From an uncultured Veillonellaceae bacterium (lineage in GTDB: Bacteria; Bacillota; Negativicutes; JARBTT01), in assembly GCA_963805085.1 (NCBI GenBank), contig CAWDTA010000002.1, positions 704,001 through 768,000 on the forward strand: a stretch of 64,000 nt of DNA. The letters are read 5' to 3'. Each line of letters starts with the position of its first letter. Position 1 is the first letter of the stretch. Below, in pieces: positions 1 through 45,318 of the stretch. Position numbers and translations under genes: made by a program. The notes beneath the pieces are model-generated. The model searched no databases. It was not told where the DNA came from and saw nothing but the letters and a program-made list of their open reading frames with translations.

Positions 1-130
1 AGCATATTACAAAATTTATTTTGATCAGGCATCTATAAATTCAACTAAAAACTATTCCGCACTAGAAAATTTTGCGAAAAAATGTTATTATTTTATCAAA
101 CTCTTAACTAAATGTAAAAGGATGTACACT

Positions 131-1072
131 ATGCGCGAATTTTTTACCAAAGAAGAAACGGTTGCTTTCGGCAAAGCACTCAGCTCCGATTTACGAGTAG
201 AAATGCTGCAATATATTTATAAAAATCGAGGAACAAGCCTCAATGATCTAGCCGAAGCACTCCATGTAAGCCGTGCTGGCATTACACAACATATGAAAAT
301 ATTAACTGAGACTGATTTAGTTGAAGTTCGGCAAGTAAACGGACAACGCGATGCTCGTAAAGCCTGTTTCCTCAAAGAAAATCGCTTTGTTATTAGCCTT
401 GGGCGTCACTTTGATTCCGGAAATATGTATACTGCCGAAATCCCGATTGGACAGTATACCAACTATCAGGTAACGCCAACCTGTGGCATTGCAACAACTA
501 CTGAATTAATAGGCAATGTTGATTCCCCTCGTTACTTCGATGATCCACTTCGTTTCAATGCAAGTATTCTTTGGTTCAGTTCTGGCTATATCGAATACCG
601 CCTACCAAATTACTTGCAAGAAAAGCATTTGCCCATCGAAATCCAAATTTCTTTTGAAATCTCTTCAGAAGCTCCTGGTATCGCAGAAAATTGGCCAAGT
701 GACATTTCTTTCTTTTTTAACGATATTTTGCTAGGTTCATGGACTAGCCCAGGCGATTTCGGTGCTGTACGTGGACTATATACACCTGAATGGTGGACGC
801 CTAATTGGAACCAGTATGGGCTACTTAAACTTCTCTCAATAAACGCGCAAGGCACTTTTATTGACGGGTTGATGATTTCTCCTGTTACAATTGATGCACT
901 AAATTTGAATGAGAAAAGCAACTTTAAATTTAGGATTTCAGCCCCTGCCGATGCCAAAAATGCGGGGGGATTTACTCTCTTTGGGCATAACTTTGGCAAT
1001 TACAACCAAGATATTAAACTACATGTCATTTATGATACAGATAAGAATGATTTCACCAAAAGTAAGCTATAA
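131..1072 (+). CDS. ArsR-family HTH transcriptional regulator with C-terminal beta-sandwich (sugar-associated type)
   Basis: N-terminal ArsR HTH (KALSSDLRVEML...ITQHMKIL); PTCG and WTSPGDFG motifs; RBS AAGGA favours ATG at 131. Confidence 0.8.
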   Translation: MREFFTKEETVAFGKALSSDLRVEMLQYIYKNRGTSLNDLAEALHVSRAGITQHMKILTETDLVEVRQVNGQRDARKACFLKENRFVISLGRHFDSGNMYTAEIPIGQYTNYQVTPTCGIATTTELIGNVDSPRYFDDPLRFNASILWFSSGYIEYRLPNYLQEKHLPIEIQISFEISSEAPGIAENWPSDISFFFNDILLGSWTSPGDFGAVRGLYTPEWWTPNWNQYGLLKLLSINAQGTFIDGLMISPVTIDALNLNEKSNFKFRISAPADAKNAGGFTLFGHNFGNYNQDIKLHVIYDTDKNDFTKSKL

Positions 1073-1079
1073 TAGAGAA

Positions 1080-1129
1080 AAAAATAGAACTACTTTCTAG
1101 GATTACACCTAAAAAGTAGTTCTATTTTT
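1080..1129. terminator. Bidirectional intrinsic terminator
   Basis: AAAAATAGAACTACTTT...AAAGTAGTTCTATTTTT inverted repeat between convergent genes. Confidence 0.8.
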
Positions 1130-1227
1130 GCTCTATCCACCTTGAATAAGACATTCTTCCTTCGGTAATAAAGGTCTGCAGAATGAAAACAGCAAGCATT
1201 TTCATTGCCTGCTGTTTTCTTCTGCCT

Positions 1228-2550
1228 TTATTTAGCTTCTGCTGTCGCCCGTACTATACTTTGTTCTAAAATCGTAAGCCCACGATCCAATTGTTCATCG
1301 GTAACAACGAGTGGGATTAATAAACGTATCACATTGCCAAATACCCCCGCACTGATTAAAATCACACCTTGTTCTAGGCATAAACGAATAACTCTTGCAG
1401 TTAATTCTTTTGCTGGTGCTTTGGATTTTTTATCCTTAACCATTTCAATCCCGACCATAGCGCCGAGACCTCTAACATCACCGATGGTTTCACAGCTTTC
1501 TTGTAGCGTTTTGAACCGACTCATTATTCTTTCGCCAATCACTTGTGCACGATGGCAAAGATCATTTTCTTCAATAAATTTCATTGTTTCGATCCCAGCC
1601 ACACAAGCCAATGGATTCCCACCGTAAGTTCCACCGATACTACCTGCACCTGGTGCATCCATATATTCTGCTTTCCCTGTTACTGCACTCAATGGTACCC
1701 CAGCCGCAATTGATTTTGCCGTTGTCATAAGGTCAGGTTCAACGCCCCAATTTTCAATCGCAAACATCTTACCACTTCTAGCAAAACCCGATTGTACTTC
1801 ATCAGCGATAAATAAGATATCATTCTTTTCACAAATTGTTTTCAAGCCTGGTAAAAATTCTTTTGGTGGAACAATAAATCCACCTTCTCCTTGGATTGGT
1901 TCAATAATCATTGCCGCAATATGATCGGCATCCATTTCAGTTGTAAAGAAACGTTCAATTCTTTCTAGGCAGGCCATACCACAACCTGGATACATCGATT
2001 TATAAGGGCAACGATAGCAATACGCGGATGGAACTTTATATACATCAGGAGCAAATGGACCAAAACCATATTTATATGGTTTTACTTTGCTCGTTAAACT
2101 CATTGTCATCAAGGATCTACCATGGAAGGCACATTCAAACGACATGATGCCTGTCTTCTTCGTTGCGTGACGCGCAATTTTCACTGCATTTTCTACAGCT
2201 TCTGCCCCACTATTGACGAACATTGTCTTTTTCTTTGATTCCCCTGGCATGATTTCATTCATTTTTTCTGCTAGTTCTACATATGGTTCGTACATGGCAA
2301 CGGAGAAAAAGGAATGTAATAATTTATCTGCTTGCTTTTGAATAGCTTTCACAACAGGTTTAGGACAATGACCGACATTCAAAACGCCTACCCCAGCATA
2401 AAAATCTAAATACTCTTTACCTTCTACATCGGTGATAACTGCTCCGCTGGCTTTTTCAACAAAAATCTCAGTGGAATGCGCAATCCCACTTGCTACAGCT
2501 GCCTGTTTCCGTTTTAATAATTTTTCTGTCCGAGTTTCTGTTCCACTCAT
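1228..2550 (-). CDS. gabT: 4-aminobutyrate--2-oxoglutarate transaminase (class III PLP aminotransferase)
   Basis: NSGAEAVENAVK, FHGR, EPIQGEGGF, DEVQSGFAR, PLP lysine in AKSIAAG, GGTYGGNP. Confidence 0.9.
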   Translation of the reverse strand: MSGTETRTEKLLKRKQAAVASGIAHSTEIFVEKASGAVITDVEGKEYLDFYAGVGVLNVGHCPKPVVKAIQKQADKLLHSFFSVAMYEPYVELAEKMNEIMPGESKKKTMFVNSGAEAVENAVKIARHATKKTGIMSFECAFHGRSLMTMSLTSKVKPYKYGFGPFAPDVYKVPSAYCYRCPYKSMYPGCGMACLERIERFFTTEMDADHIAAMIIEPIQGEGGFIVPPKEFLPGLKTICEKNDILFIADEVQSGFARSGKMFAIENWGVEPDLMTTAKSIAAGVPLSAVTGKAEYMDAPGAGSIGGTYGGNPLACVAGIETMKFIEENDLCHRAQVIGERIMSRFKTLQESCETIGDVRGLGAMVGIEMVKDKKSKAPAKELTARVIRLCLEQGVILISAGVFGNVIRLLIPLVVTDEQLDRGLTILEQSIVRATAEAK

Positions 2551-2585
2551 TTGTGAACGCCTCCTAAAATATATCTGATTCTCTA

Positions 2586-2674
2586 ATAAAAATAAAACCG
2601 CCGAAGTATCCTTTTGGGGATATTACTTCGGCGTCATTGCCAATTAGCTTCATAAAATTTTTAGCAACTTTGTG
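2586..2674 (-). promoter_or_regulatory. gabT leader: ANTAR-like hairpin GGC-AATGAC-GCC overlapping an intrinsic terminator
   Basis: Minus-strand hexaloop with A1/G4 at 2641-2630; its 3' arm overlaps the stem CGCCGAAGTA...TACTTCGGCG, followed by a U-tract. Confidence 0.6.
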
Positions 2675-2802
2675 TTTATTTGATTATGACCTCATAATAT
2701 CAGATATACTAGGCTGGGTCTATGTGCATATTGCCGTTATGTTTCATTGTTTTTAGGAACTATTCACAGTCGAAGATTCAGATCCCCGTTTATCTCCTAG
2801 CC

Positions 2803-3495
2803 TTATCCAAGCGATCTTGCTAGAAAAAATGCTACTGCTGAAGCTATACTCCCAATAACGGTAGTTTGAATAGCACTTTTCCAGGGTTTGTTTCCCATAA
2901 ATCTCCCCTTTAGATAGCCAAAGATAAATAAAGCGGAGACTGTGCAGTAGACAGACCAGGTTAGTCCATCCGTAATATTTGCAAACACCATATAAGGAAA
3001 CAGCGGCACAAAGCCACCAACAGCGTAAGCCGCAGAGATTGTCAGAGCGCTATATAATGCACGGCGCGGCTCAGGCCTTTCTAAGCCCAGCTCAAATTTC
3101 ATCATAAAATCAACCATAGCAGTAGGATTTTGCTCCAGTGACTTAATTAAAGGGAAGCTTGCTTCCTTTGAAACACCATAAGCAGCAAAGATATCCGCGA
3201 TTTCCTGTTTTTCATCTTCTAGCCGAAACTCTGTTTCCTGCCGTTCTCTCTGTAATTCACTGTCATAATGTTCGTTTTCACCGCGAGCCGCAAGATAACC
3301 GCCAAGCCCCATGGAAATAGAGCCAGCTACAATTTCCGCAAGTCCTGCAGTAACAACAAGCCCAGTGGATGAAGCGGCACCTGATATCCCGGCTGCAAGC
3401 GCAAAAGGCACAGTCAGCCCATCTGACATGCCGAGTACTATATCCTTAATAAAATCAGACGAAGTAAAATGATGTTCTCCATGCACTTCTGCCAA
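2803..3495 (-). CDS. VIT1/CCC1 family iron/manganese transporter
   Basis: DIVLGMSDGLTVPFALAAG, GSISMGLGGYLA, MMKFELGL motifs. Confidence 0.9.
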   Translation of the reverse strand: MAEVHGEHHFTSSDFIKDIVLGMSDGLTVPFALAAGISGAASSTGLVVTAGLAEIVAGSISMGLGGYLAARGENEHYDSELQRERQETEFRLEDEKQEIADIFAAYGVSKEASFPLIKSLEQNPTAMVDFMMKFELGLERPEPRRALYSALTISAAYAVGGFVPLFPYMVFANITDGLTWSVYCTVSALFIFGYLKGRFMGNKPWKSAIQTTVIGSIASAVAFFLARSLG

Positions 3496-3585
3496 GATAA
3501 TTCTCCCCTATCTAAAATATTCATTAGAAATTTTTATTTCGTAAAAATATAGAAAACTCCTGCAAAATTATCCATAAAAACAAAC

Positions 3586-3668
3586 AAAACAATAAAGAGG
3601 AATCCTAATTACTTCTACCAATTAGGATTCCTCTTTATTGTTTTTATTGAAAAATTTTATTTTTTTAC
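3586..3668. repeat. Hairpin-plus-tail repeat, copy A (others at 5723-5838 and 9615-9701)
   Basis: AAAGAGGAATCCTAATT...AATTAGGATTCCTCTTT; the 42-nt segment 3622-3663 matches 9654-9695 at 37/42 ungapped. Confidence 0.75.
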
Positions 3669-3903
3669 ATACTGCTGCTTTATATGATGAGTATATTATA
3701 AAAAAATATTATGATGATTGCCCTATTTAGTTACTGAAATAATGTAGCTATTTAAGACTTTATTTTTGTGGTAAAAAACAAGTCTGACGTTCCCTTTTTA
3801 ACAGCATGATCGTAATAAAAGAGACTATCAAGGTGGCGAAAAATTAAAAAAATACAATAAAAAACATGATCCTTGTGATAAAAAATCATGTTTTAGCCTA
3901 CTT

Positions 3904-3935
3904 TTGCTTGCAATCCCCAAGAAATGTAATATAAT
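3904..3935 (+). promoter_or_regulatory. Putative sigma-A promoter for a long structured leader
   Basis: TTGCAA (3908) N16 TATAAT (3930-3935). Confidence 0.55.
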
Positions 3936-3951
3936 AAAAAATAAGGTGGAA

Positions 3952-4049
3952 ATAAAAAAAGTCGCCGTGTCCCGAGAGTGTTGACGCACTCTCAGGCACG
4001 AGCAGGTGGTACGAGCACCTACACGTAACAGCTAGCTGTCTACGACGAC
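3952..4049 (-). ncRNA. Putative ~95-nt cloverleaf antisense RNA
   Basis: Own promoter TTGTAA-N17-TATAAT (4083-4055); closing stem, three hairpins and a U-tract; three A.C mismatches on + become G.U pairs on -. Confidence 0.65.
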
Positions 4050-4054
4050 AATTT

Positions 4055-4083
4055 ATTATACCGTGCTTTTCCCTTGATTACAA
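4055..4083 (-). promoter_or_regulatory. Sigma-A promoter of the antisense RNA
   Basis: Minus strand TTGTAA-17 nt-TATAAT; predicted +1 falls at the first base of the closing stem. Confidence 0.7.
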
Positions 4084-4165
4084 GGGAGATAGTCCGTTCG
4101 CTTGGTATAATACGATTGAAGTTTTGGCAGAGGCTTAGCGTCTGCATGCAATCAAGATGAAGTAT

Positions 4166-4206
4166 AGCGCATGTGTAGGTTGGAAAACCCACGCATGCGC
4201 TTTTTT
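4166..4206 (+). terminator. Leader terminator (attenuator candidate)
   Basis: AGCGCATGTGTAGGTT-GGAA-AACCCACGCATGCGCT followed by T-run. Confidence 0.75.
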
Positions 4207-4298
4207 AATTTCCCCTGAAACAAACTGTATGTTGGTTTTTTCTATCTGCATCAGCGGATAGAAGAAACCACGTGCAGAATGATGAAGGGGGAAATAAA

Positions 4299-4454
4299 TT
4301 GGTAACAGTACAAGGTAGTAAAAAGCTATGGGCAAGGTATCGCACCAGCGTGTGGCGAGGAAGCCTCCTCGCCACAACCAAGGGGAGAGGTTCGTTCTAT
4401 TTACAAGGGACAAGATATGTTTTTTGGGAAAACAGAGGTTCTATAAATGTATAG
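4299..4454 (+). CDS. Small basic hypothetical protein (51 aa)
   Basis: RBS GAAGGGGG then TTG at 4299; overlaps start of the next ORF. Confidence 0.5.
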   Translation: MVTVQGSKKLWARYRTSVWRGSLLATTKGRGSFYLQGTRYVFWENRGSINV

Positions 4455-4770
4455 AATCTTTAGAACACCAAAAGCCACGATTATTGCTCAGGAAGTAGAG
4501 AACACTGATTTTACAGTTAAATTGCTTACAGATTTAGATTGCAAAGAATATGTGATGATCAAATGGCAAGATACAGTTAATATATATAATTTTTCGCTAG
4601 TTGGTCAGGTCATTGAAATAGCTGACGAAATTTCATTAGAAGAGTTTAGAGAAATTACCTATGCGAAAATATATAAGGAATCATTAGAGCAGGAAATCAA
4701 ACCTAACAGTATGGATTCTCTAAAGTTCGGTTGGAAAAATTTTCTAGAAACAGACACAACTGGCAGCTAA
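4447..4770 (+). CDS. Hypothetical protein (107 aa, acidic)
   Basis: RBS GAGGT, ATG coupled to upstream ORF, strong terminator follows. Confidence 0.65.
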   Translation: MYRIFRTPKATIIAQEVENTDFTVKLLTDLDCKEYVMIKWQDTVNIYNFSLVGQVIEIADEISLEEFREITYAKIYKESLEQEIKPNSMDSLKFGWKNFLETDTTGS

Positions 4771-4792
4771 TACCTGCCAGTTGTGTTTTTTT
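4754..4792 (+). terminator. Intrinsic terminator
   Basis: ACACAACTGGCAG...CTGCCAGTTGTGT plus T-run. Confidence 0.8.
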
Positions 4793-4826
4793 ATGGACAA
4801 ATGAGAGACTTCATAAAATTTTGTGC

Positions 4827-5681
4827 AAAACAAGGGACAGGGGTTATGTTTCAAGCTTTCCAAATCCATGTTGACGACAGTCTCGTTATTCGCGCTATCT
4901 GGCGTATATTGGCACCATCAACTTCTTTCAGGGCTCTCAATATGTGATCTTGTTTTTCCCTCATTTCATTACAAATTTTTATCGCATCAATGCCGAATTG
5001 ATGTCTGACCATTTGTCGAAGATGGACATCACTCACATTTACTTTAACTTCCGGAATTTCCATACAGACATCGCTGTTCGTTTCCCGTAAAAACTGTACA
5101 AATCGTCCAATCGCTTCATCAGGTTTGTCAGAAAACATGTTTAAGGCATATTCCTTGTCAACGATTTGTGCGCCCTCTATATATTCACTATAACTACTCC
5201 ATTTATAAGCCTCTATATCGCTTGCGATTTTTGCCTTTATCGGGTTCTGGTGAATATAGCGCAGAACTTTCAAAAAATAGCTGTCTGTTTCTATAGCTTC
5301 GCTTTTAAATCTCTCTTAAAATAAATGACCGCATCGTTCATGCTTACGATTATACCATATAACGTAGCTTGAACTAACTCGTTGTATCATCATACTAATA
5401 GACTCTTGGGTTTCTTGTACCAAGATGTGTATATGGTTATCCATTAAACAATAGGCAAAAATTCGACATTGGCTGATTTCTTTGTATTTTGTGAGGTCTT
5501 CGATTAATTTCAGTCGATCTTCATCATCTTCAAAAAATGCTTTGCCGATTGATCCCGCGTAATATAATATGATATATTCCACTGTTACTTTTTTCTCTTG
5601 CTTTTCTTGCCAATTTCCTCACCTCTGAGAAAGTTATATCATTTCGCTTATGCCGAAACAATGTCCCTGTCCCCATGTTTT
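4827..5681 (-). mobile_element. IR-flanked HUH tyrosine transposase element (RAYT/TIRYT-like), copy 1
   Basis: Imperfect inverted repeats with GGGACAGG core at 4827-4852 and 5655-5681 flank the transposase. Confidence 0.7.
4851..5613 (-). pseudogene. REP-associated tyrosine transposase (Y1_Tnp) pseudogene
   Basis: TTG start MARKAREKSNSGIYHIILRGIN, frameshift, YCLMDNHIHIL (HUH), in-frame stop in GHLF*ERFKS, YIHQNP catalytic Tyr motif, C-terminal HTH. Confidence 0.85.
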
Positions 5682-5722
5682 ACGCTTAAAAAGCTAAGTT
5701 ATCAATAAAACCGACAACTCAG

Positions 5723-5838
5723 CAAAAGACGAATCGCAAGGAAGGTTTAAAACTTCCTGAGATTAAACAATGAGCATTTCTTTATACTAGTTAGGATTCG
5801 TCTAAATTACTTTTGGTGAAAAGTTTTATTTTATAACT
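5723..5838. repeat. Hairpin-plus-tail repeat, copy B (expanded loop)
   Basis: CAAAAGACGAAT arm; 5791-5832 matches 9654-9695 at 34/42 ungapped. Confidence 0.65.
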
Positions 5839-6158
5839 CAGCTAGTTTGGTTTAATCAAACTGATGCTAGACAAAAAGACCCGGTACATTGTCTTTAGAT
5901 AAGTGTTTTCTGCAATCTATAAGTGAATATATTTCTCTTTATCTAAATCTCTTTTATAATGTAGTTTATTTTTAGACTCATGTCGCTCAATGCTTTATTA
6001 ATCCTATATTAAGGCAATTTTTACATGTTATACATTTTTTTATATTAATTATATTTTTTATGAAAATTGACACAATATTCCACAAAGGATATAATTTAGT
6101 TGTAGTATATGAGCACATAATATTTCATAACTAAAATATTAAAAAGGTGGTTTTGTAT

Positions 6159-7478
6159 ATGGCATTACAAGAGTGTAAAAAATATAGGATATTAATTGCT
6201 CCAGAAGTAGAAGATTTAGCAGAAACACATCGAATGACAAGTTTTGCTAAGGCTTTTAAAAAGTTAGGGCATGAAGTCATAGTATTAGGAAGAGGAAGGT
6301 ATGATTATCTTTTTGCTGATGAAGGCTTTCAAAGAGTGTACATTGATTATGATGAAGAATGGATGGATGATGAAAAATTTAGAAAGATGCACACTCTTGA
6401 TAAATATGGATGGGATTTTCTTACAGAAAGTGAATTAAAGAAGTTTGTACAGCTAGAGGTGGAGCTCTTAACGGAGTTGAAGCCGGCAGTGGTTATCACT
6501 GGTTTTAGACCTACCATGAGCATATCAACTAAATTAGTAGGACTTCCTCTGGTTTGGGTTCTATCCGCCGTTTGTTCAGACATGTATTATGAGAATGGGT
6601 TAGCAACGCCATTAATGCTAACAAATGAAAAGACTTCTGAGTTAAAAAATTTTCCTCAAAAACATGAAAGGTTTATTACAAATAAAGTTGACTATTTGCC
6701 ATATAAGTTTTCTTCATGGAATAAGGTGATGAAAGAAATGAAGTTAGATAACTTTAGCAGTGCTGTTAACATTGTTAGAGGAGACTTTAACTTGATGTCA
6801 GATGCACCTGAGCTTTTTCCAGAATTTCAAAATATACCACCTTATTATGGTTTTTGTGGACCAATTTTGATGGAACATAATATAGACATGCCTGACTCAA
6901 TAAAAAAATACAAAAAAGTATCTGGACGACCTATAATATTTTTTGCAATGGGCTCATCAGGTGATCCTGAAATATTTAAGTCTATTATTGCTGGATTTAA
7001 AGATCAACCTTATGATGTATTTGCTGCATTAACAAATATTATTAGTAAAGAGGAGATACCATATATTCCTCCAAATGTGGTAGTTGAGAAATTTTATCCT
7101 GCGTTTGAAGTGACCGTGATGGCTGATGTGGCTGTAATACATGGAGGCCAAGGTACAGTCTATACAACCACAATGGCCGGTACACCTTTTGTTGGAATTC
7201 CTATGTTTACTGAACAGCAGTATAATCTTGAAAATCTTGCTAGGAAAGGCTGTGGCATTGTATTATCAAGATATAATCTTAGTTCAGAGATTTTAAATAA
7301 ATCAATTAATCAAATACTTAATAACAAAGAATTTAAAAATAATAGTTCAAAAGTTCAAAATGAAATCATCAAGTATAAAATAGATGAAAATTTCTATTCA
7401 CCGATGATAGGAGCTAAGCAAGTTATCAAATTTTTAAATAATAAAGTAGATTCTTATTTTAAAGTAAATGCACTATAA
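6159..7478 (+). CDS. GT-B glycosyltransferase, family GT1/MGT-like
   Basis: AMGSSG, IHGGQGT, PMFTEQQYN motifs of the UDP-sugar binding domain. Confidence 0.85.
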   Translation: MALQECKKYRILIAPEVEDLAETHRMTSFAKAFKKLGHEVIVLGRGRYDYLFADEGFQRVYIDYDEEWMDDEKFRKMHTLDKYGWDFLTESELKKFVQLEVELLTELKPAVVITGFRPTMSISTKLVGLPLVWVLSAVCSDMYYENGLATPLMLTNEKTSELKNFPQKHERFITNKVDYLPYKFSSWNKVMKEMKLDNFSSAVNIVRGDFNLMSDAPELFPEFQNIPPYYGFCGPILMEHNIDMPDSIKKYKKVSGRPIIFFAMGSSGDPEIFKSIIAGFKDQPYDVFAALTNIISKEEIPYIPPNVVVEKFYPAFEVTVMADVAVIHGGQGTVYTTTMAGTPFVGIPMFTEQQYNLENLARKGCGIVLSRYNLSSEILNKSINQILNNKEFKNNSSKVQNEIIKYKIDENFYSPMIGAKQVIKFLNNKVDSYFKVNAL

Positions 7479-8062
7479 TTTTTCTGTTTTTCACAAATTA
7501 ATTTATGAATATATATAGTGTCATATACTATCTGTTTTCATTAATTTGTAAACTGAGACTAAGCCACCCTTCATTATATTTACAGATTGTTACTGCAATA
7601 CTTTAAAATATATATTCTGTGTTTGTCAAATGAGTTGGCGTAAAAATTTTAAAAAATCATTTTGGTCACTCTTTTTTATTTTCCAACGGAAGGCATGATA
7701 CATAACAATTGCTTCCATAGTATGAACAACCTGCGATGAAGACGTTGCACCAGCGATAATATTAGCAATATGCTGATTTAATGGTCGAGAAAAGTAGAGA
7801 GGTAAATGCAATATTCAATTAAAATTGTGAATTGTTGAATCATCTATTAAAATAAATGTACGAGGCATAGACTCACTTCTTTGTTTAGATTTGTGTGGTA
7901 ACTTATTCTATATCATAGTTGTGAGTCTTTTGTCTCTATTTATTTTTACTGGAATTAAATGAAATAAAATTTAATTGTTTATAATTGTAAAAAACAAAGC
8001 AACTAAAATGGTATAATTAAACTAAAATTAATTAATTTGAAAAATCGCGGAGGAATTTTAAA

Positions 8063-8926
8063 ATGATTAAATTAATTGCATCTGATATGGATGGAACGTT
8101 ACTAGGAACAAATCAAAAAATATCAAAGGAAAATATAGAAGCTATAAAAGCAGCACAAGAAAAAGGAATTGACTTTGCTATTGTAACTGGCAGAGCATAC
8201 GCAGATGTTAAACCTTTCTTAGATGAGTATGGTTTGAAATGTCAATGTGTTGTACTAAATGGCGGGGAATACAGGGATATTGCAGGAAAAATAGTTGTAG
8301 GGAGTTATATTAATAAAAGAATAGCAACTGAAATTTTAAATATAATAGCAAAGTATGATATAATTGTTGAAATATATACGGATGATGGATATTATACAAT
8401 AAATACAAAGGAAGAAACAGTAAAAGGGATGATAAAAAGAGCAAAAATTTTTTGCCCAGATCTTACAGATTTTGATGAAATTTATCAAGAAGCTATTAAT
8501 CATCCTCAGTTTGTTAAGATGCAGTACATAACAAATTTGAATGAGTTCTTAAAAAGTGATTTGAATATAGGCAAATTTGTTTTTTTTGCAGAGTCGATTG
8601 ATGAAATCAATGCAATCAAGCAAGCCTTAAATGTATTGCACGGACTCGCTATATCTTCAAGTCTTCCTACGAATATTGAAGTGAATGATGTTAGTGTTAC
8701 CAAAGGACGTATATTAGTTAAAGTTGCTGAAAAAATGGGGATAAGCAAAGAAGAAGTAGCCGTTTTAGGTGATAGTTCTAATGATTATTCTATGTTCGTA
8801 GAGTTTCCAAATTCATTTGCTATGGAAAATGCAATACCCGAAATAAAAAAGGTTGCAAAATACATAACTACTAGCAATGCCGAACATGGTGTAGCAAAGG
8901 CAATCTATCGTATATTGGATCTTTAA
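8063..8926 (+). CDS. Cof-type HAD-IIB hydrolase
   Basis: DMDGTLL, VTGR, TKG, GDSSND motifs. Confidence 0.92.
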   Translation: MIKLIASDMDGTLLGTNQKISKENIEAIKAAQEKGIDFAIVTGRAYADVKPFLDEYGLKCQCVVLNGGEYRDIAGKIVVGSYINKRIATEILNIIAKYDIIVEIYTDDGYYTINTKEETVKGMIKRAKIFCPDLTDFDEIYQEAINHPQFVKMQYITNLNEFLKSDLNIGKFVFFAESIDEINAIKQALNVLHGLAISSSLPTNIEVNDVSVTKGRILVKVAEKMGISKEEVAVLGDSSNDYSMFVEFPNSFAMENAIPEIKKVAKYITTSNAEHGVAKAIYRILDL

Positions 8927-8965
8927 TAGATAGGATAGAACGTATGCCAATTAGAGTTTGCGCAA

Positions 8966-9593
8966 TGGGACAAGGGGACAGGTTTGCTGTCCCACTGATA
9001 AAAGAGAATAAAGAATCAATAGACCAAGTGATAAAACGAATTAGTAGTAGCTATGTATATTGGTATAATCAAAAATATCAACGGTGTGGGCATTTGTTTC
9101 AAGAGCGATATAAGAGTGAAGTTGTCGAGACAGATGCATATTTTCTTATGGTTTTGAGATACATTCATCAGAATCCGGTAAAAGCAGGAATTACCAAAAA
9201 TGTAGGTAGATATTTGTGGAGTAGTTATCATAATTATGTCGGTATACCAGGTATTACAGATATAGAGTTTGCGTTAGAAAATTTTTCGAGTGACAAAGCA
9301 GCGGCGACAAAATTATTTATAGAGTATACAAATGAAAACAATGCAGATGAATGTTTGGGTTGTAGAGAAAAAGTGATTGTATCCGATCAGAAAATAATGA
9401 AATATTTAAGTGAAATGGGAATAACAACGATTAGTCAATTGCAACGATTAAATAAAGAGCAACGGGATAATGTAATCCGAAAGATAAAAGAAAAGGATGG
9501 CATTACGATAAGGCAATTAGCAAGGATAACTGGAATTTCTAAAAGTGTAATTGATAGATTGTAGTGGGACAACAAACCTGTCCCTTTGTCCCA
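8966..9593 (+). mobile_element. IR-flanked HUH tyrosine transposase element, copy 2 (5'-deleted)
   Basis: 31-bp inverted repeats 8966-8996 and 9563-9593 (29/31) with GGGGACAGG core. Confidence 0.8.
8995..9564 (+). pseudogene. REP-associated tyrosine transposase fragment lacking N-terminus and HUH motif
   Basis: YVYWYNQKYQRCGHLFQERYKS and YIHQNP present; homology starts abruptly at the left IR. Confidence 0.8.
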
Positions 9594-9614
9594 ATTTCAC
9601 CCCAACTAAATCAA

Positions 9615-9701
9615 CAAAAGACGAATACTAATTGCTTTAAGCCCTACTAGCAATTAGTATTCGTCTTTATTTCTTTTATCGAAAAATTTTATTTTATCAC
9701 T
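9615..9701. repeat. Hairpin-plus-tail repeat, copy C (also the pucR terminator)
   Basis: AAAGACGAATACTAATTGC...GCAATTAGTATTCGTCTTT just downstream of the pucR stop. Confidence 0.8.
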
Positions 9702-9714
9702 TAATCGTTTTTAT

Positions 9715-10944
9715 CTACTCATGCATTAAAAAACCAAACTTCATTTGTTTCCCGACGATCACACCCAATTGCAATGTCAACCGATCATAGGGATTGGTTA
9801 GTTTTTTTCCGGTGATTTCTTCAACTTTCTTTAACCGATAATCGAGGGTATTGCGGTGTAAAAATAGGCGTTTTGCGGTTCTGACGACATTGCCATTTTC
9901 CTCAAAATACACAAATAAGCTGAGAACCAGATCCATTTTATATTTACGATCATATTCATTGAGCGGTTCGATAACCTCTTCATAATATTCTTTTAATTGT
10001 TCATTCGGTATTTCAAATAATAATTTATAAATTCCTAACTGCTCATACTCGTAAACAGACTTTACCGTTGCCGTAGACTCTGCTAACCACAACGCTTTAT
10101 TGCCTTGCATATAGCTACGCCTAACATCGCGCAAAGTTTTTGCTGTCCCGCCCAAGCTTGCCACAATGCCATATCTAGGAAATCTCGCATTTAATTTTTC
10201 AATAATTTCTGATACAAATACAAAATTACTTTGCTGTTTTGTCGTCTTAGCATCTGTTGGTAACAATAAAACTACTTTATCCATCCATAACGTTACCAGC
10301 AATTTTTTTCCTTGCATAACTAAAATATCACGAACAAGCTGCTCTAATTGCGTTTTTAAGGCAACGATAGCAAATTCGTCTTTGATCTCTTCTTCTTGAA
10401 CGTAATTTTCTAAATTTGCTGGGCTAAAAATTACGACTTGCTGTGGTTTTGATAAATCATAGCCATAGACCCCAGCACGCTCTACTAGATTTGGAGCATC
10501 CTCAACTGGTTGTAATAATAATTGTTCAAAAAAATGATAAATCAAATGTTTTTCCGTTTGCTTCAATACGATATAACTACAAATATCTTGCGTAACTTCA
10601 ACAAGTTTTACTTCCCACGGCAATTCAAATACAGGAAAATTTGCCGCATCGGCAATCTGGATAACTTCATCAGGAATTTTCTTGATATACGGTCCTACAT
10701 TGATGATAATCCCCGCAATATTTTTATGAATTAAGCCTTGCACAAGCGTTGTTAAACCGCGCATATCACCATTTAAAGCAATGCCTGTAATAATGAGCAA
10801 TTCTCCACCCTGTACCCACGGAAGCACATCGGGCAAATCAATAAAATGTACCCATCTTACTTGATGATACAGACCATCTTTTCCCCCTACAATCTTTAAC
10901 TTTGCTAATGAATGTAGATTGATAATTTCACGGCAACTAACCAT
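9715..10944 (-). CDS. PucR-family transcriptional regulator
   Basis: N-terminal PucR ligand domain (VRWVH...WVQGGELLIITG), C-terminal HTH LFLHRNTLDYRL. Confidence 0.92.
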   Translation of the reverse strand: MVSCREIINLHSLAKLKIVGGKDGLYHQVRWVHFIDLPDVLPWVQGGELLIITGIALNGDMRGLTTLVQGLIHKNIAGIIINVGPYIKKIPDEVIQIADAANFPVFELPWEVKLVEVTQDICSYIVLKQTEKHLIYHFFEQLLLQPVEDAPNLVERAGVYGYDLSKPQQVVIFSPANLENYVQEEEIKDEFAIVALKTQLEQLVRDILVMQGKKLLVTLWMDKVVLLLPTDAKTTKQQSNFVFVSEIIEKLNARFPRYGIVASLGGTAKTLRDVRRSYMQGNKALWLAESTATVKSVYEYEQLGIYKLLFEIPNEQLKEYYEEVIEPLNEYDRKYKMDLVLSLFVYFEENGNVVRTAKRLFLHRNTLDYRLKKVEEITGKKLTNPYDRLTLQLGVIVGKQMKFGFLMHE

Positions 10945-10971
10945 ATGCAAGACTCCTTTTAAGACTGATTC

Positions 10972-12390
10972 CTACAAATTGAAAACAATTAATTTCTCTT
11001 CAGTCATTTCTTTTACTGCGTAGGCAGGCCCTTCACGACCAATCCCACTTTCTTTTACGCCACCATAAGGCATGTTATCCATCCGGAATGTTGCACCATC
11101 ATTGATAATCACACCGCCAACTTCCAATTTTTCCACGCAAAGATGTACAATATCAAGCGCATTGGTAAATACCCCTGCTTGCAGTCCATAAATGGAATCA
11201 TTGACCTGGGCGATAGCGCCCTCAATATCATTATAAGGGATAATCGAGAATACTGGTGCAAAAATTTCTTTGCAGATCACTTTCATCTCAGATTTTGTAT
11301 TGGTTAAAATTGTTGGTCTCAGCCAAACTCCCTCACGTGTGCCACCTGTCAAAATTTTTGCGCCTGCATTGACAGCTTCATCAACCCATTCTTGGGCACG
11401 AATTGCTTCTCTTTCACTAATCATTGGGCCTACATCTGTTTTTAAATCTGCAGGATCACCAAAAATCATTTTTTCGGTAAACGCGACTGCTTGCCCGCAA
11501 AACTCTTCATAAATATCCTGATGTACATAGACTCTTTGACAAGAAATACAAACTTGACCAGCGTTAACGAACGCATATTTTGCACAAAGTTCGGCAACTT
11601 TTTGTACATCAGCGTCTTTATGCACGATATTCGCCGAATTGGAACCAAGCTCTAAGGCTACCCGGCGAAAGCCAGCTGCTTTCAATAGACCTTTGCCGAC
11701 CGCCGGGCTGCCAGTAAAGCTATATAAACGAATCCGTTGTTCTTCAGTTAACAATGCCCCTAAACTAGAACCTGAACCTGTAAGCAGGTTCAAATACCCT
11801 GCTGGTAAACCTGCTTCGCTAAAGATCTCGCAAAGTAGTACCGCGGATATTGGTGTGGTAGTTGCTGGTTTATAAATAACAGCATTTCCCGCAGCCAAGG
11901 CTGGTCCGAGTTTATGGCAAGCTAAATTCAATGGGAAATTAAATGGGGTAATCGCACAGACAATGCCAAGTGGCACACGCTTTGTATAGGCCAAACGATT
12001 TTCACAGTTCGGTGCGCCTTGAATCGGTACCATTTCTCCGGTCATGCTTTTCGCTTCTTCTGCCGACAGAATCAACGTTTGTTTCGCTCTTGATACCTCC
12101 GCCATCGCATCTTTCATCGGTTTGCCTACTTCAATGCAAAGTGCTGTAGCAACTTCCGCTTGTCTCTCCATTAAAAGATTACTTGCCTTCATCAGTATTT
12201 CATAACGGCGATATGGGGCAATTTTTTCTGCTTTTAAGGCTTTTTCAGCTGCATCCACAGCTGCTGTTACCTCTTGCTTTTCGGCAATGGAAATCGTCGC
12301 CGCTACCTTGCCAGTTGCTTTATTAAACACTTCACATGTTTTTTCTGTTTCTAGCCATTTTCCATCAATAAATAAACCATATTTCTTCAT
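10972..12390 (-). CDS. NAD(P)-dependent aldehyde dehydrogenase (succinate-semialdehyde/aminoaldehyde type by context)
   Basis: ITPFNFP, FTGS, LELGSN, GQVCIS catalytic Cys, EIFAP, PYGGVKESG. Confidence 0.9.
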   Translation of the reverse strand: MKKYGLFIDGKWLETEKTCEVFNKATGKVAATISIAEKQEVTAAVDAAEKALKAEKIAPYRRYEILMKASNLLMERQAEVATALCIEVGKPMKDAMAEVSRAKQTLILSAEEAKSMTGEMVPIQGAPNCENRLAYTKRVPLGIVCAITPFNFPLNLACHKLGPALAAGNAVIYKPATTTPISAVLLCEIFSEAGLPAGYLNLLTGSGSSLGALLTEEQRIRLYSFTGSPAVGKGLLKAAGFRRVALELGSNSANIVHKDADVQKVAELCAKYAFVNAGQVCISCQRVYVHQDIYEEFCGQAVAFTEKMIFGDPADLKTDVGPMISEREAIRAQEWVDEAVNAGAKILTGGTREGVWLRPTILTNTKSEMKVICKEIFAPVFSIIPYNDIEGAIAQVNDSIYGLQAGVFTNALDIVHLCVEKLEVGGVIINDGATFRMDNMPYGGVKESGIGREGPAYAVKEMTEEKLIVFNL

Positions 12391-12447
12391 TACACTATCT
12401 CCTTTTTACAATAAATATATGCTCGCTTGATTTTTGCTTTTGGGGAT

Positions 12448-12493
12448 AATAAAAAAGATCGCAGTCATCCTTAACTTACGATCTACCTTGATC
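12448..12493 (-). promoter_or_regulatory. ALDH leader: ANTAR-like hairpin GATC-AAGGTA-GATC overlapping a terminator
   Basis: Hexaloop with A1/G4 at 12493-12480; its 3' arm is the 5' arm of AGATCG...CGATCT, followed by a U-tract. Confidence 0.55.
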
Positions 12494-12542
12494 TTTTTTC
12501 TTTATAAAAGTGTGTTCCAAAAACACACAACAATAAAATTCA

Positions 12543-12663
12543 AGAGACTGTTACAAGATGCCCAAATGCTAGGCAGGGCGAGAACACGAGGGCGTACGAT
12601 GTAGTACGTTGAGCGAGTGCTCGCAGGATGAGCAACGCAGATGGGTATTTTGTAACAGTCTCT
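12543..12663 (+). repeat. 121-bp structured MITE-like repeat, copy 1
   Basis: TIR AGAGACTGTTACAA...TTGTAACAGTCTCT; internal motifs shared with 15952-16093. Confidence 0.75.
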
Positions 12664-12954
12664 ATTATAGCTTTAGAATACCAGTATCTATGGGTAGAGT
12701 CAATAAACTTCCTTCGGCATATTTCACAATAAATATAACCTATTTTAGGATTTTTTTATATTTCATCACAATCATTTTATTTGCTAAGCAGTACGCACAG
12801 GATTGTCTCAGCCAACTGCGTTTATGGTCTACTACTTGACACAAGGTAGTCTTTTTGTGATAATGGCAAGAATACTAGCCGCTATATAAACATACACATT
12901 ACATACTATAATGAAACAAACTTATCTTGATATTTCCAGAGGAGGCAAGCAAAA

Positions 12955-32317: not shown

Positions 32318-32351
32318 TTTTGCTTACAAAAGCTACCCCTCACCTTTAAAT

Positions 32352-32409
32352 AAAAAACGCCCGCATGAATATTACTTTCTACCAAGTAATTCATGCGGGC
32401 GTTTATTTT
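32352..32409. terminator. Bidirectional terminator
   Basis: AAACGCCCGCATGAAT...ATTCATGCGGGCGTTT. Confidence 0.85.
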
Positions 32410-32418
32410 AGTATGCAA

Positions 32419-33078
32419 TTAATTAATATCCACACTATGTACACCTTTGAGCTTCATCAAGGCTTCTGCGATATCAGCTGACTTTACGCAATGAATATTT
32501 AACGTATCAATATCAATAAAAACAGTTTTTGCGGTATTTTCTTTAATTTGCAGCCCCTTAGTCTTGATATGAAAGGCTTCTAAACATTTGCCAATTTCCC
32601 CTATTTGACCTGGCGTATCATCTGATTCAACAGAAATAAGCATATTTTTTTCATGGGTCACCCAATCATCCAAGCGAGATAACGTCCCTAATGTGGCAAA
32701 AACTAAAAAAGAAGTAAATAATGCCCCCACATAGAAACCAGCGCCAACGGCGAGCCCCACTCCAGCTACTACCCAAAGACAAGCCGCTGTAGTTAACCCT
32801 TTTATCGTCAAGCCCTCTTTCATAATCGTACCTGCACCTAAAAACCCGATTCCACTAACAACCTGAGCCGCAAGACGGGCTGGATCAGCATTGGTCAGCC
32901 CTTCAACCTGTTGATAAATATGTTGCGATAACACCATAATTAAACATGATCCCAAGCATACTAATATATTGGTACGAAGACCAGCTGATTTTCTCCTTGA
33001 CTGTCGTTCATAACCAACTAGCCCACCTAAAAAGCACGCCAAAATCAATCGTAATAATAACTCCCATTCTGAAACCAT
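32419..33078 (-). CDS. MgtC/SapB family protein
   Basis: AGLRTN, RLAAQVVSGIGFLGAG, GLTTAA; C-terminal ACT-like domain. Confidence 0.92.
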   Translation of the reverse strand: MVSEWELLLRLILACFLGGLVGYERQSRRKSAGLRTNILVCLGSCLIMVLSQHIYQQVEGLTNADPARLAAQVVSGIGFLGAGTIMKEGLTIKGLTTAACLWVVAGVGLAVGAGFYVGALFTSFLVFATLGTLSRLDDWVTHEKNMLISVESDDTPGQIGEIGKCLEAFHIKTKGLQIKENTAKTVFIDIDTLNIHCVKSADIAEALMKLKGVHSVDIN

Positions 33079-45046: not shown

Positions 45047-45258
45047 AAAATAACACATAAATAAAAAGGCCACGGATTTTTATTTATGCTGACTTTTTCC
45101 TGAATCCATGCCTATATCATTTATCCAGCAAGGTGCGTTTAGCTATTTTGGGGGCTTGCCCGAAAGGTGCTCGACGTTTATCTTGATAACTTTGTTTTTT
45201 TTCGCTTGCGTTTTTGATAACACTTGCCTTCACCGCGAGAATTTTAGGGCTTGCTTAG

Positions 45259-45318
45259 AAAAAACAAAAATGCTACTAACTCCGTTTTAAAGTTAGCTGC
45301 ATTTTTTGTTTTTTTTAT
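45259..45318. terminator. Bidirectional terminator (ancestral feoB/xylB)
   Basis: AAAAACAAAAATGC...GCATTTTTTGTTTTT directly after the displaced feoB stop. Confidence 0.7.

Follow-up and report, generated by a model that had tools for sequence, protein, structure and literature searches.

A gene-accretion hot spot marked by directly repeated palindromic units between pucR and VIT1 in a Negativicute genome

The interval between the pucR and VIT1 genes of the 64-kb stretch of DNA analysed here (the window) is a real gene-accretion hot spot. Small palindromic units of one family are largely restricted to this locus, lie in direct orientation at the joints between cargo segments and exceed these segments in number by one. 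The cargo differs in relatives, and duplications extend past the hairpin of the unit. The preferred reading, to which about an even chance is given, is that segments accrete at the pucR terminator by Campbell-type events that duplicate the unit, while TIR elements home to its flank. The intermediate would presumably be circular, and the joining agent could be RecA, using short homology, or a Y1 TIRYT enzyme supplied in trans.

The interval is flanked on the left by a VIT1/CCC1-family gene (nt 2803–3495, minus strand; Pfam VIT1, E 6e-70), 89% identical to its counterpart in metagenome contig L013 (12649–13414), and on the right by a pucR-family regulator (nt 9715–10950, minus strand; Pfam PucR, GGDEF_2 and HTH_30), the product of which shows 92–93% amino acid identity in contigs L013–L015. 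The layout described in the initial annotation, with cargo followed by a transposase between inverted repeats and then by a repeat, is real for both cassettes of the window. The first runs from the X module (nt 3817–4800) through a decayed Y1 gene (nt 4851–5582, minus strand) to unit B, and the second from a glycosyltransferase gene (nt 6147–7478) and a Cof gene (nt 8063–8926) through a 5'-deleted Y1 gene (nt 8944–9564) to unit C. Unit A (nt 3571–3671, plus strand) has a left flank (nt 3571–3585), a perfect 25-bp hairpin (nt 3586–3644) and an AT-rich tail to nt 3663/3671. It scores 73.9 bits with CM R1, is closest to C and L013_H4, and is kept beside VIT1 in run contigs as far as nt 3663. Unit B (nt 5693–5845, plus strand; outer TIR AGCTAAGTTAT.../...ATAACTCAGCT) is a full-length, though divergent, copy of a 183-nt MITE (56.6 bits, E 7e-18, against the classic-MITE HMM), and is 93% identical over 159 nt to C2:550930–551088 of the same genome (G000). 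Unit C (nt 9593–9703, plus strand; hairpin nt 9617–9668, tail to nt 9695/9703), the putative resident terminator of pucR, scores 100.6 bits with CM R1 and is orthologous to L015_H1 and L013_H1.

A repeat search of the window gave a direct three-copy family (nt 3612–3671; nt 5781–5840, 73%; nt 9644–9703, 83%). Recounting of the ungapped 42-nt matches reported earlier gave the same values against nt 9654–9695, i.e. 37/42 for nt 3622–3663 and 34/42 for nt 5791–5832; A and B likewise agree at 34/42. The quoted stems, GAGGAATCC/GGATTCCTC and GACGAATAC/GTATTCGTC, occur once each at the positions given for them, and the hairpins are stable. As ssDNA, A folds with –26.9 kcal/mol (z –10.8) and C with –21.2 kcal/mol (z –9.6), while B forms a long MITE-type hairpin (–18.7 kcal/mol, z –3.2). 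The threefold direct recurrence holds, but B, as a divergent full MITE copy, is not a simple hairpin, and the repeat extends beyond the 42-nt matches: the actual unit is about 90–120 nt and comprises a conserved left flank, a perfect stem of 19–25 bp closed by a conserved loop, and an AT-rich tail. Identity between A and C and between B and C is only 76–79% over 57–87 nt (gapped for A–C), with short identical runs, and the best 45 nt of A and C are 89% identical. The unit is a lineage-specific palindrome distantly related to the 183-nt MITE, and it reads as a predicted two-way intrinsic terminator.

That A, B and C are three unrelated AT-rich intrinsic terminators, similar by chance or convergence, is extremely improbable. 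Each of the three does sit at the end of a gene, in AT-rich DNA, and Rfam gave hairpin A only a weak, sub-threshold match to an Enterococcus antisense RNA (34.4 bits vs a 49-bit gathering score). Their likeness, however, covers the non-stem flanks, loop and tail, and no further 42-mer on either strand of the window agrees with copy C at 30 or more of its 42 positions. An HMM trained solely on eight units of the metagenome loci, and searched against all of G000 (4.2 Mb), recovered C (67 bits, E 4.5e-18), A (31 bits, E 8e-7 genome-wide), C4:12844–12925 (24 bits), C2:550978–551066 (21.6 bits) and B (17.6 bits), the next match having an E of 0.24. Together with the units of relatives (below), these E-values and the 42-mer scan refute a chance likeness. 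The family has five members in the 4.2-Mb genome, three inside this 6-kb gap and two elsewhere. Among 150 other Negativicutes genomes CM R1 found no comparable match; five of them had a single weak one each (41.6–43.6 bits), and the same-genus MAG G001 reached just 30.9–35.4 bits. A GTDB-wide scan with the exact pattern gave nothing beyond three unrelated matches. On this census the repeat is limited to a Massilibacillus-like lineage and is not a common dispersed terminator, the case that the initial annotation had named as contrary to its proposal.

The comparison drew on three independent arrangements and on run contigs, which are fragmentary. The strain variation predicted for the pucR–VIT1 interval was found, as cargo number and content differ among L013/L014, L015 and G000, and all three metagenome contigs have a directly oriented unit at each cargo joint. 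From pucR to VIT1, L013/L014 carry six units separated by five cargo segments that are unrelated, and L015 has two units around the same GT-Cof cargo as in G000, so that n cargo segments go with n+1 units throughout (2/3 in G000, 5/6 in L013, 1/2 in L015). All 11 units of the three arrays point in one direction, and every strong R1 match in the roughly 50 kb of DNA covered from relatives falls within the pucR-adjacent array. Both array ends meet the conserved flanks exactly at unit edges (nt 3567/3571 and 9601–9603 of the window): homology to L013 stops at nt 3567, 4 nt short of unit A, and that of the relatives ends at nt 9601–9603, the left edge of unit C. Units around one insert are mutual closest relatives. 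L013 H5 and H6 form a direct repeat of ~120 nt with segments 86–88% identical, and L015 H1 and H2 match at 134/182 (74%) with a 26-nt identical run, reaching 53 nt into the pucR coding sequence. The left-hand unit of GT-Cof differs, being B in G000 and C-like in L015, which indicates that the cassette does not own its site. The arrays also contain gene fragments, namely pucR' in L015 and a 3' piece of VIT1 in L013. All L013 cargo ORFs with a Pfam match, except an IS fragment, lie on the pucR strand, and a unit follows each group.

These arrays also bear on the possibility of a passive hot spot, in which strains would swap a variable islet through double crossovers within the conserved genes on either side, the units being independent MITE derivatives or terminators, or imported with operons. 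In keeping with this, B is a genuine MITE variant whose nearest copy lies at another genomic site, and A and C come second and third, in the correct register, when searched with the classic-MITE HMM. Moreover, units act as predicted terminators behind cargo genes, the gene groups of L013 each ending in one, the gene fragments would reflect recombination within flanking genes, and other mobile debris occurs throughout the region. Such a swap is nevertheless unlikely, as it sits poorly with the common direction of all units, with arrays whose first and last units abut the conserved flanks precisely, with the mutual nearest relationship of insert-flanking units, and with just two family members outside the gap in 4.2 Mb, from which it follows that cargo genes elsewhere do without a unit.

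The cargo of the window is heterogeneous. The X module (plus strand) comprises a 5' hairpin, a promoter (TTGCAA/TATAAT, nt 3908–3935), a conserved, structured RNA of ~265 nt (nt 3944–4207) with a terminator at its end, ORF51 (nt 4299–4454), ORF107 (nt 4447–4770) and a further terminator (nt 4752–4788). The RNA belongs to no Rfam family, the ORFs have no Pfam, NCBIfam or PHROG match, and relatives of ORF107 are limited to this lineage. What the initial annotation described as an sRNA module and two ORFs is itself a multicopy repeat, present in at least 14 copies in G000 (79–96% identical, upstream flanks unrelated). The block from X to B resembles C2:555181–550930 (X 96%, B 93%). The GT1-family UDP-glycosyltransferase (plus strand; Pfam UDPGT and EryCIII-like_C; 91 bits with the NCBIfam macrolide-family model, under its 260-bit cut-off) is single copy in G000 and 92.8% identical to L015:12422–14003. 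The Cof-type HAD-IIB hydrolase (plus strand; TIGR00099, 188 bits, above cut-off) is 94.3% identical to L015:11438–12430 and has a paralogue at C2:487977–488874 (84.6%). Between them lies a 389-nt insertion (nt 7548–7936) that is without counterpart in L015 and has TIR-b-like ends; within it lies nt 7905, to which a solo TIR is joined in run contigs.

TIRYT-1 (nt 4819–5692, minus strand; TIRs of ~35 nt at 4819–4852 and 5650–5692) is a decayed Y1 element, IS200-like/REP-type, with its gene in at least two pieces (nt 5316–5582 and 4851–5273). It matches Pfam Y1_Tnp (E 4e-9) and, under cut-off, NCBIfam REP_Tyr_transpos, and by tblastn is split over frames and 48% identical to an intact TIRYT. TIRYT-2 (nt 8966–9593, plus strand; TIRs at 8966–8996 and 9563–9593, a 31-nt inverted repeat of 94%) is a copy of an 854-bp TIRtron with an internal deletion. 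It is without about the first 63 codons, HUH motif included, and five copies in other parts of the genome match it at 93.8–98.2% identity over ~599 nt. A transposase element is not a regular component of a cassette: no Y1 gene occurs in any of six cargo segments of the relatives, and both local genes are broken. TIRYT-1 and TIRYT-2 are missing from the relatives (TIRYT-2 specifically from L015 and L013), which have solo TIRs at the corresponding flank. A small solo TIR-like hairpin, read from the sequence, lies at the left edge of GT-Cof (nt 5868–5898), and L015 has a comparable one at the matching edge. The elements and solo TIRs are best read as homing to the left flank of the unit and driving further rearrangement, rather than as built-in cassette parts. 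The indel breakpoints between G000 and near relatives (nt 4825/4830 and 7905; run contigs) lie at TIRYT inverted repeats and outside any hairpin unit, which speaks in part against the initial annotation, as it had placed strain breakpoints within the repeat.

A more active role for these enzymes is possible, though rather doubtful: the folded ssDNA unit would be an attachment site, next to which a trans-acting Y1 HUH enzyme (TIRYT) inserts unit, cargo and TIR. A TIR end (a solo TIR-b, or an end of TIRYT-1 or TIRYT-2) adjoins the left edge of 8 of 13 units (G000 4/5, L013 3/6, L015 1/2), and the leftmost unit of the VIT1-anchored arrays (A, H6) is without a TIR, as such insertion predicts. Three of the eight TIR-b cores of G000 adjoin unit-family members, different TIR families share one position, three homology breaks lie within 5 nt of the tail end (nt 3662/3663 and 5837), and five full-length copies elsewhere, four with an unbroken 252-aa match bearing HUH and Tyr motifs, could act in trans. 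The TIRs bear the GGGGWSAS motif described for TIRtrons in the available text of PMC3733652, and classic MITE copies, like elements moving as ssDNA, change strand at the replication origin. Against this, only 1 of 10 TIRYT-2-type copies adjoins a unit, the remaining flanks being unrelated; three of eight cargo segments (L013 Trx, L013 SEC-C/PRiA4, L015 GT-Cof) have no unit-edge TIR; the L015 duplication takes in pucR coding sequence; both local TIRYT genes are dead; and in the same available text TIRYT action on substrates is only proposed for assay. 

Under Campbell-type accretion, copy C would be the resident terminator occupying the space from the stop codon of pucR to the region upstream of VIT1. 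Most simply, a circular or otherwise unit-bearing segment would recombine with the resident unit, and segments so joined in succession would each deposit one extra unit. The order unit–cargo–unit through to a last unit, all co-directed, is what such additions would leave. Strand orientation on C2 accords with this. At the GC-skew origin, close to 0.8 Mb, the strand switches for nine of ten X copies and for 20 of 22 MITE matches, X and B of the window being among the exceptions, and the island has a positive GC skew within a negative-skew replichore. This anomaly would be expected if recombination at a resident unit, not ordinary transposition, had set the orientation. The likeness of the X–B block to C2:555181–550930 is also in line with the scheme. 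No recombinase was found in any array. Several observations weigh against the scheme. Units of different subtypes all have perfect stems, which excludes crossovers between arms of unlike units, and the low identities and short identical runs noted above make A–C and B–C poor RecA substrates today. The sole strain indel mapped to near the nucleotide (nt 4825/4830 to 7905) ends at TIRs and not at units, and solo TIR-like hairpins edge GT-Cof in both G000 and L015; the latter, with the frequency of TIRs at unit edges, points to Y1-type elements as active players. The pucR and VIT1 fragments suggest that some events used flanking genes and not the unit. No circle or empty site was seen in the three arrangements and run contigs.

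The initial annotation had favoured an integron-like accretion site possibly served by RAYT/TIRYT enzymes, and homology-assisted capture at one terminator, which it named as the alternative, fits at least as well. The hot spot and the units at joints survive from the former; integrase, attC boxes and a cassette-owned site do not. Sites of the attC type have extrahelical bases and R/L boxes, and are conserved at the level of structure. As in integron arrays, co-directed folded palindromic sites separate mostly unrelated genes, content varies between strains, and the L013 cargo genes are co-oriented with a site after each group. Unlike integrons, G000 has no integron integrase (best 46 bits vs a 265-bit cut-off), the perfect stems lack attC-type boxes and bulges, sequence and not structure alone is conserved, GT-Cof has no site of its own, and some of the cargo consists of mobile elements or of multi-gene segments that bring their own promoters. 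On these points, as on the 53-nt pucR duplication and the breakpoints at TIRs, the analogy fails. As in CALINs, described as clusters of attC sites without an integron integrase (PMC4889954), the array has no integrase beside it. Like the units, MITEs and terminator-like palindromic repeats of the Correia, RUP, BOX and ERIC kind are small non-coding multicopy palindromes, capable of termination and substrates for rearrangement; unlike them, the short units are not dispersed (three of five in one 6-kb gap) and keep a fixed direction at cargo joints. TIRtrons/TIRYT and REPtrons/RAYT each combine Y1 HUH transposases with a family of repeats (Di Nocera et al. 2013, PMC3733652; bioRxiv 10.1101/279083). 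Both local elements are TIRtrons, with a Y1_Tnp domain, the GGGGWSAS motif (as GGGGACAG) in the TIRs on either side, and solo TIRs scattered over the genome. The triplicated hairpin unit differs in being a separate, larger palindrome and not a TIR, and the TIRs gather beside it; TIRtrons bounding cargo segments at one locus go unmentioned in the available text of PMC3733652. IS26 regions and translocatable units, as far as outlined in PMC4196232 and PMC4676283, differ in that IS26 is an 820-bp IS with its own transposase, while the unit is a ~100-nt non-coding palindrome encoding no enzyme, arrayed at one chromosomal terminator of a Negativicute. As in IS26-interspersed resistance regions, one directly oriented repeat encloses unrelated cargo with repeats numbering cargo plus one, and, like an IS26 translocatable unit, the proposed mobile unit would be one repeat with adjacent DNA, inserting beside a resident repeat.

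The interval between a VIT1-family gene (nt 2803–3495, minus strand) and a pucR-family regulator gene (nt 9715–10950, minus strand) is occupied, in the genome under study (an assembly of 4.21 Mb, 37% G+C, 5 contigs, with the window at C2:704001–768000), by an array region at about nt 3571–9703, in which three direct copies of a palindromic unit (A, B and C) alternate with cargo. An ArsR-type regulator gene, followed by a class-III aminotransferase gene (nt 1228–2550, minus strand), lies to the left of the array, and an aldehyde dehydrogenase gene lies beyond pucR. The cargo of unit 1 is a repeated module, X (nt 3817–4800), which is followed by TIRYT-1 (nt 4819–5692), a decayed Y1 transposase element. 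Further to the right are a glycosyltransferase gene (GT, nt 6147–7478, single copy in this genome), a Cof hydrolase gene (nt 8063–8926, with an 84.6% paralogue elsewhere in the genome) and TIRYT-2 (nt 8966–9593), a deleted copy of an 854-bp element. The GT-Cof cargo has a G+C content of 27–34%, and the island displays a positive GC skew within a replichore of negative skew. Between GT and Cof is a 389-nt insertion with TIR-like ends (nt 7548–7936). These ends resemble a solo TIR type, TIR-b, found elsewhere in the genome, and the segment, absent from the related metagenome contig L015, carries a 61-codon ORF without a family match; nt 7743–7984, which takes in part of the segment, is 82–85% identical to two sites in a genome of another family (G034).

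A repeat search returned one three-copy direct family, at nt 3612–3671, 5781–5840 (73%) and 9644–9703 (83%). The match counts of the initial annotation were reproduced exactly (37/42 between A and C, 34/42 between B and C), A and B also match at 34/42, and the stems it quoted occur once each, at the places it gave. The copies are real, but the unit, when aligned with those of relatives, exceeds the 42 nt assigned to it. On both strands of the 64 kb window, no other 42-mer matches copy C at 30/42 or better. Folded as ssDNA, A and C reach -26.9 kcal/mol (z -10.8) and -21.2 kcal/mol (z -9.6), and B forms a far longer hairpin (-18.7 kcal/mol, z -3.2). Across 10 units from this genome and its relatives, standard pairs fill 90.2% of the pair cells, against 30–48% when the partners are slid, and compensatory changes are present in 3 of the 19 pairs. 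Chance similarity is a very improbable explanation of the family.

The unit is non-coding and about 100 nt long. A conserved left flank (CCATCCAYAAACCCAACTAAAYCAGCAAAAGACGAAT...) is followed by a perfect stem of 19–25 bp with a conserved loop starting with TTTAAAC, and then by a tail, GAAAAATTTTATTTT, which in some units is extended to ...AACTTAGCTAATTTGCTCTAAT. The perfect stems measure 25 bp in A, 20 bp in C, and 23 and 19 bp in units H4 and H5 of the metagenome contig L013. Units have the stable stem-loop and the T-run on the transcribed strand that characterize intrinsic terminators. Because each strand has a T-run after the stem, as seen in C and in the relatives' units, the unit reads as a predicted two-way terminator. 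A consensus terminator scan reports A as a minus-strand terminator, the 14-nt loop of C being over its limit. An E-value scan of nt 1–13000 against Rfam gave no family at its gathering score; the sole match on a unit, RefA9 at hairpin A, was rejected at 34.4 bits against a gathering score of 49 bits.

In whole-genome BLAST searches A and C matched only each other (45 nt, 88.9%), and B matched C2:550930–551052 (94%) on its own contig and C4:12869–12915 on another. An HMM built from 8 units of metagenome relatives, and containing no sequence of the genome under study, was run unfiltered over the 4.2 Mb. It ranked C first (67.0 bits, E 4.5e-18), followed by A (31.0 bits, E 8e-7), C4:12844–12925 (24.1 bits), C2:550978–551066 (21.6 bits) and B (17.6 bits, E 0.012), the sixth-ranked match having an E-value of 0.24. 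Short units are clustered in this search rather than dispersed, and the match list gives a family of five genomic members, three of them in the 6-kb gap; the concern of the initial annotation that the repeat might be a common dispersed terminator was not borne out. A covariance model of the unit (R1), run over 151 Negativicutes genomes, gave strong matches in the genome under study only and one weak match in each of five others (41.6–43.6 bits); a MAG of the same genus (G001; 84% complete, 280 contigs) reached only 30.9–35.4 bits. Two weak R1 matches elsewhere in the window (nt 45254–45333, 33.4 bits, and nt 32345–32425, 24.9 bits, both minus strand) could be ordinary terminators, or else distantly related to the unit. 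A 21-nt degenerate left-arm pattern searched against GTDB species genomes was discarded, its 3 matches falling in unrelated taxa and being close to the number expected by chance.

A scan of metagenome contigs for PucR gave 13 loci, three of which (L013, L014 and L015) encode a PucR of 92–93% identity. In all three, homology to the genome under study extends through pucR and its unit and ends at the left edge of that unit (nt 9601–9603). The pucR-VIT1 interval of L013 contains six direct units and five cargo segments without a counterpart in the genome under study: a thioredoxin-like gene; a short segment with no Pfam match; SEC-C and DUF6933/PRiA4_ORF3 genes; a GGDEF-HD-GYP sensor; and a VIT1 3' fragment with TetR and alpha/beta hydrolase genes and an IS4 fragment. 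L014 has the same arrangement as far as its contig reaches. On the VIT1 side, homology with L013 ends at nt 3567, 4 nt short of the left edge of unit A. The VIT1 fragment in L013 (131 nt of the 3' end, L013:9828–9958) hints at import from a donor similar to the genome under study, since it is 93% identical to VIT1 of that genome as against 89% for the full VIT1 of L013 itself. In L015, pucR is followed by a unit, Cof (94.3%) and GT (92.8%). Next come 53 nt from the 3' end of pucR together with another unit, then a solo TIR and the gene for a chemotaxis receptor; L015 lacks TIRYT-2, the 389-nt insertion and VIT1. The direct repeats flanking its GT-Cof cargo match at 134/182 positions, with 53 nt of pucR coding sequence included and an identical run of 26 nt. 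A pucR paralogue beside an MCP gene, considered as the source of the pucR fragment, was not found in the genome under study.

Units exceed cargo segments by one in each of the three arrangements (3/2, 6/5 and 2/1), all 11 units have the same direction, and every strong R1 match in about 50 kb of the relatives' DNA lies within an array. In G001 the contig starts inside pucR and VIT1 has no match, leaving the gap unreadable. Public sequencing runs contained at best 22% or less of the sampled words; metagenome contigs of four soil/groundwater runs (about 85–99% likeness) were used, their uncovered parts being uninformative. These keep VIT1 and A up to nt 3663, followed by 71 differing letters and then the start of X, and they join nt 4825/4830 to nt 7905 through a solo TIR of 34–39 nt. 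The latter joint implies a putative relative in which X, a solo TIR and Cof are present and TIRYT-1, B and GT are missing, though X is multicopy and this is perhaps not the copy beside A. Four other joints (3647>4834, 9592>9648, 9003>5679 and 8935>3881) were set aside, as their shorter sides are 33–47 nt and may come from paralogous loci. From three independent arrangements and the fragmentary run contigs, the accretion site proposed in the initial annotation, with a repeat at each joint and content that differs between strains, is real. Its placement of breakpoints in the repeat stands for the relatives, where homology ends at unit edges, but not for the best-mapped strain indel, which ends at TIRs. 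A passive variable islet, whose palindromes would have arrived independently, is an improbable account of these arrays.

The enzymes of the TIRYT elements are Y1_Tnp/RAYT-like proteins (Pfam Y1_Tnp) with an HUH motif and a catalytic tyrosine; an intact 252-aa copy has NHIHLL and RYIHQNP, and the match to NCBIfam REP_Tyr_transpos is below its cut-off. Neither local gene is whole: that of TIRYT-1 is split into at least two pieces, and that of TIRYT-2 has lost about the first 63 codons, so that it starts past the HUH motif. Five other copies of the TIRYT-2 element are 93.8–98.2% identical; in four of them the 252-aa match is unbroken, and in the remaining copy the match covers 251 residues. An intact 252-aa protein is encoded at C2:248253–249008. 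The TIRs that flank TIRYT-2 are 31 nt long and 94% complementary, and they contain GGGGACAG, which corresponds to the GGGGWSAS motif. This motif is described for TIRtrons in the portion of PMC3733652 consulted, where TIRYT activity assays are proposed rather than reported.

A Y1 transposase in every cassette, as initially supposed, does not hold in the relatives, where none of the 6 cargo segments has a Y1 gene; a solo TIR is present at the flank of 4 of their 8 units. TIR ends adjoin the left edge of the unit in 8 of 13 units, which suggests a Y1 enzyme acting in trans, and 3 of the 8 TIR-b cores of the genome under study lie beside members of the unit family. Only 1 of 10 TIRYT-2-type copies is beside a unit, however, and a dedicated Y1-served system appears rather unlikely. 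The stretch AAATTTAYGC was dropped as a candidate TIR insertion target, as the alignment of the TIRYT-1 inverted repeats puts it in the outer end of the TIR itself. TIR homing to the X terminator was likewise rejected; two of the three X-TIR junctions have the same junction sequence and were counted as duplicates, leaving two independent events. A second mobile-element cluster (C2:544000–557000) harbors two PixA inclusion-body genes and three TIRYT copies or remnants, one interrupted by an IS (DUF772/DDE), together with an X copy and a unit (B2) that has a solo TIR beside it; the order X...B2 corresponds to X...B in the window.

Judged by sequence comparison, the unit is a relative of a 183-nt MITE, which has 27 HMM matches in the genome, 20 of full length. 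B is a full-length, though divergent, copy of this MITE (56.6 bits, E 7e-18). A and C score only 5.4 and 4.0 bits, but theirs are the second- and third-best scores of the 6.4-kb region, and both can be aligned in register to the right arm of the MITE. Both B and the 183-nt family are small and non-coding, have TIRs and belong to a set of many copies; no clear target-site duplication was seen in the 20-copy alignment. On contig C2, 20 of the 22 MITE matches switch strand near 0.8 Mb, at the minimum of the cumulative GC skew; of the two that do not, one is B. X shows the same switch in 9 of its 10 copies on C2, and for both repeats this may reflect ssDNA movement or co-orientation with replication. 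A second repeat, of about 235 nt, occurs at about 35 places in the genome (e.g. C2:1882370–1882603) and at L015:4697–4933 and 6296–6537. Its copies often have a 183-nt MITE about 60 nt away, so that the two repeats may represent halves of a single larger element.

X has at least 14 copies of 79–96% identity with unrelated upstream flanks. It comprises a promoter, a conserved structured RNA of about 265 nt that ends in a terminator, and a pair of small coupled ORFs followed by another terminator. It gave no match in Rfam, Pfam, NCBIfam or PHROGs, and all proteins returned by a search with its ORF107 were hypothetical ones from the same lineage. The RNA-like leader (nt 3944–4207, plus strand), with its own promoter and terminator, has copies at loci L050–L061, L003 and L004. 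It is near-invariant in 13 copies of this genome and in two other Negativicutes genomes, except that two hairpin loops (alignment columns 38–43 and 66–72) vary in almost every copy, and its core (about nt 3942–4085) is also present in several further families of the class. Two contig ends lie inside X copies (C1:1–573 and C2:1–388), and this repeat is one reason why the assembly is in 5 pieces.

Our preferred explanation, which has about an even chance of being correct, is a recombinational accretion that duplicates the unit, with TIR elements as secondary homers. Unit-bearing DNA would integrate into a resident unit in Campbell fashion, as suggested by arrays that obey the n+1 rule, have their units in direct orientation and end exactly at unit edges; such integration can be likened to that of IS26 translocatable units. 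The units flanking one insert are mutual nearest relatives (H5/H6 in L013, H1/H2 in L015), the X...B block parallels C2:555181–550930 (X 96%, B 93%), and X and B of the window depart from the replication-linked strand rule to which 9/10 X copies and 20/22 MITE matches on the contig conform. Such exceptions are expected where the resident unit, and not transposition, sets direction, and all three observations fit Campbell-type integration. RecA is a possible joining agent, but the units now have only short identical runs in common. If accretion of this kind holds, a non-coding terminator palindrome would act as the joint that recurs along a gene-accretion site of the chromosome, in a lineage of Gram-negative-type Firmicutes that has been little studied and with no recombinase encoded on site. 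The units would then also offer TIRYT enzymes a concrete substrate that can be tested. With the R1 model, metagenomes can be screened for further arrays and their cargo.

It is unlikely that the units are attachment sites of an undescribed cassette-capture system of Massilibacillus-like Negativicutes, in which the terminator palindrome of about 100 nt folds as ssDNA and a trans-acting Y1 HUH enzyme (TIRYT), or another enzyme encoded off the array, joins to it circles that bear a unit or segments of the form unit-cargo-TIR. Such a system would be functionally analogous to integrons, with HUH chemistry in place of a tyrosine recombinase.

The integron-like idea of the initial annotation is apt for the architecture, but weak as an analogy of mechanism, as there is no IntI, the stems are perfect and the cargo has no site of its own. 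A whole-genome search for IntI (TIGR02249) gave a best score of 46.4 bits against a cut-off of 265 bits, 14 control genomes likewise having sub-threshold matches only, and no recombinase was found in the arrays of the genome under study, L013, L014 or L015. Integron attC sites have R''/L''-L'/R' boxes (RYYYAAC...GTTRRRY) and an imperfect stem with extrahelical bases, and are conserved in structure and not in sequence. The box consensus was not found by eye in the unit alignment, and the units, in contrast to attC, have perfect stems and a sequence conserved through flank, loop and tail. Unlike integron cassettes, GT-Cof (93–94% identical between the genome under study and L015) lacks a site of its own, since the unit on its left differs, being B in the former and a C-like unit with a pucR fragment in the latter. 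The arrays recall those of IS26-type translocatable units, with the same direct repeats interspersed with cargo and the same n+1 count. The IS26-type repeat, however, encodes the transposase for a targeted conservative reaction, whereas the units described here are short and non-coding; if the accretion reading holds, the array logic of IS26 and of integrons would extend to a repeat that encodes nothing.
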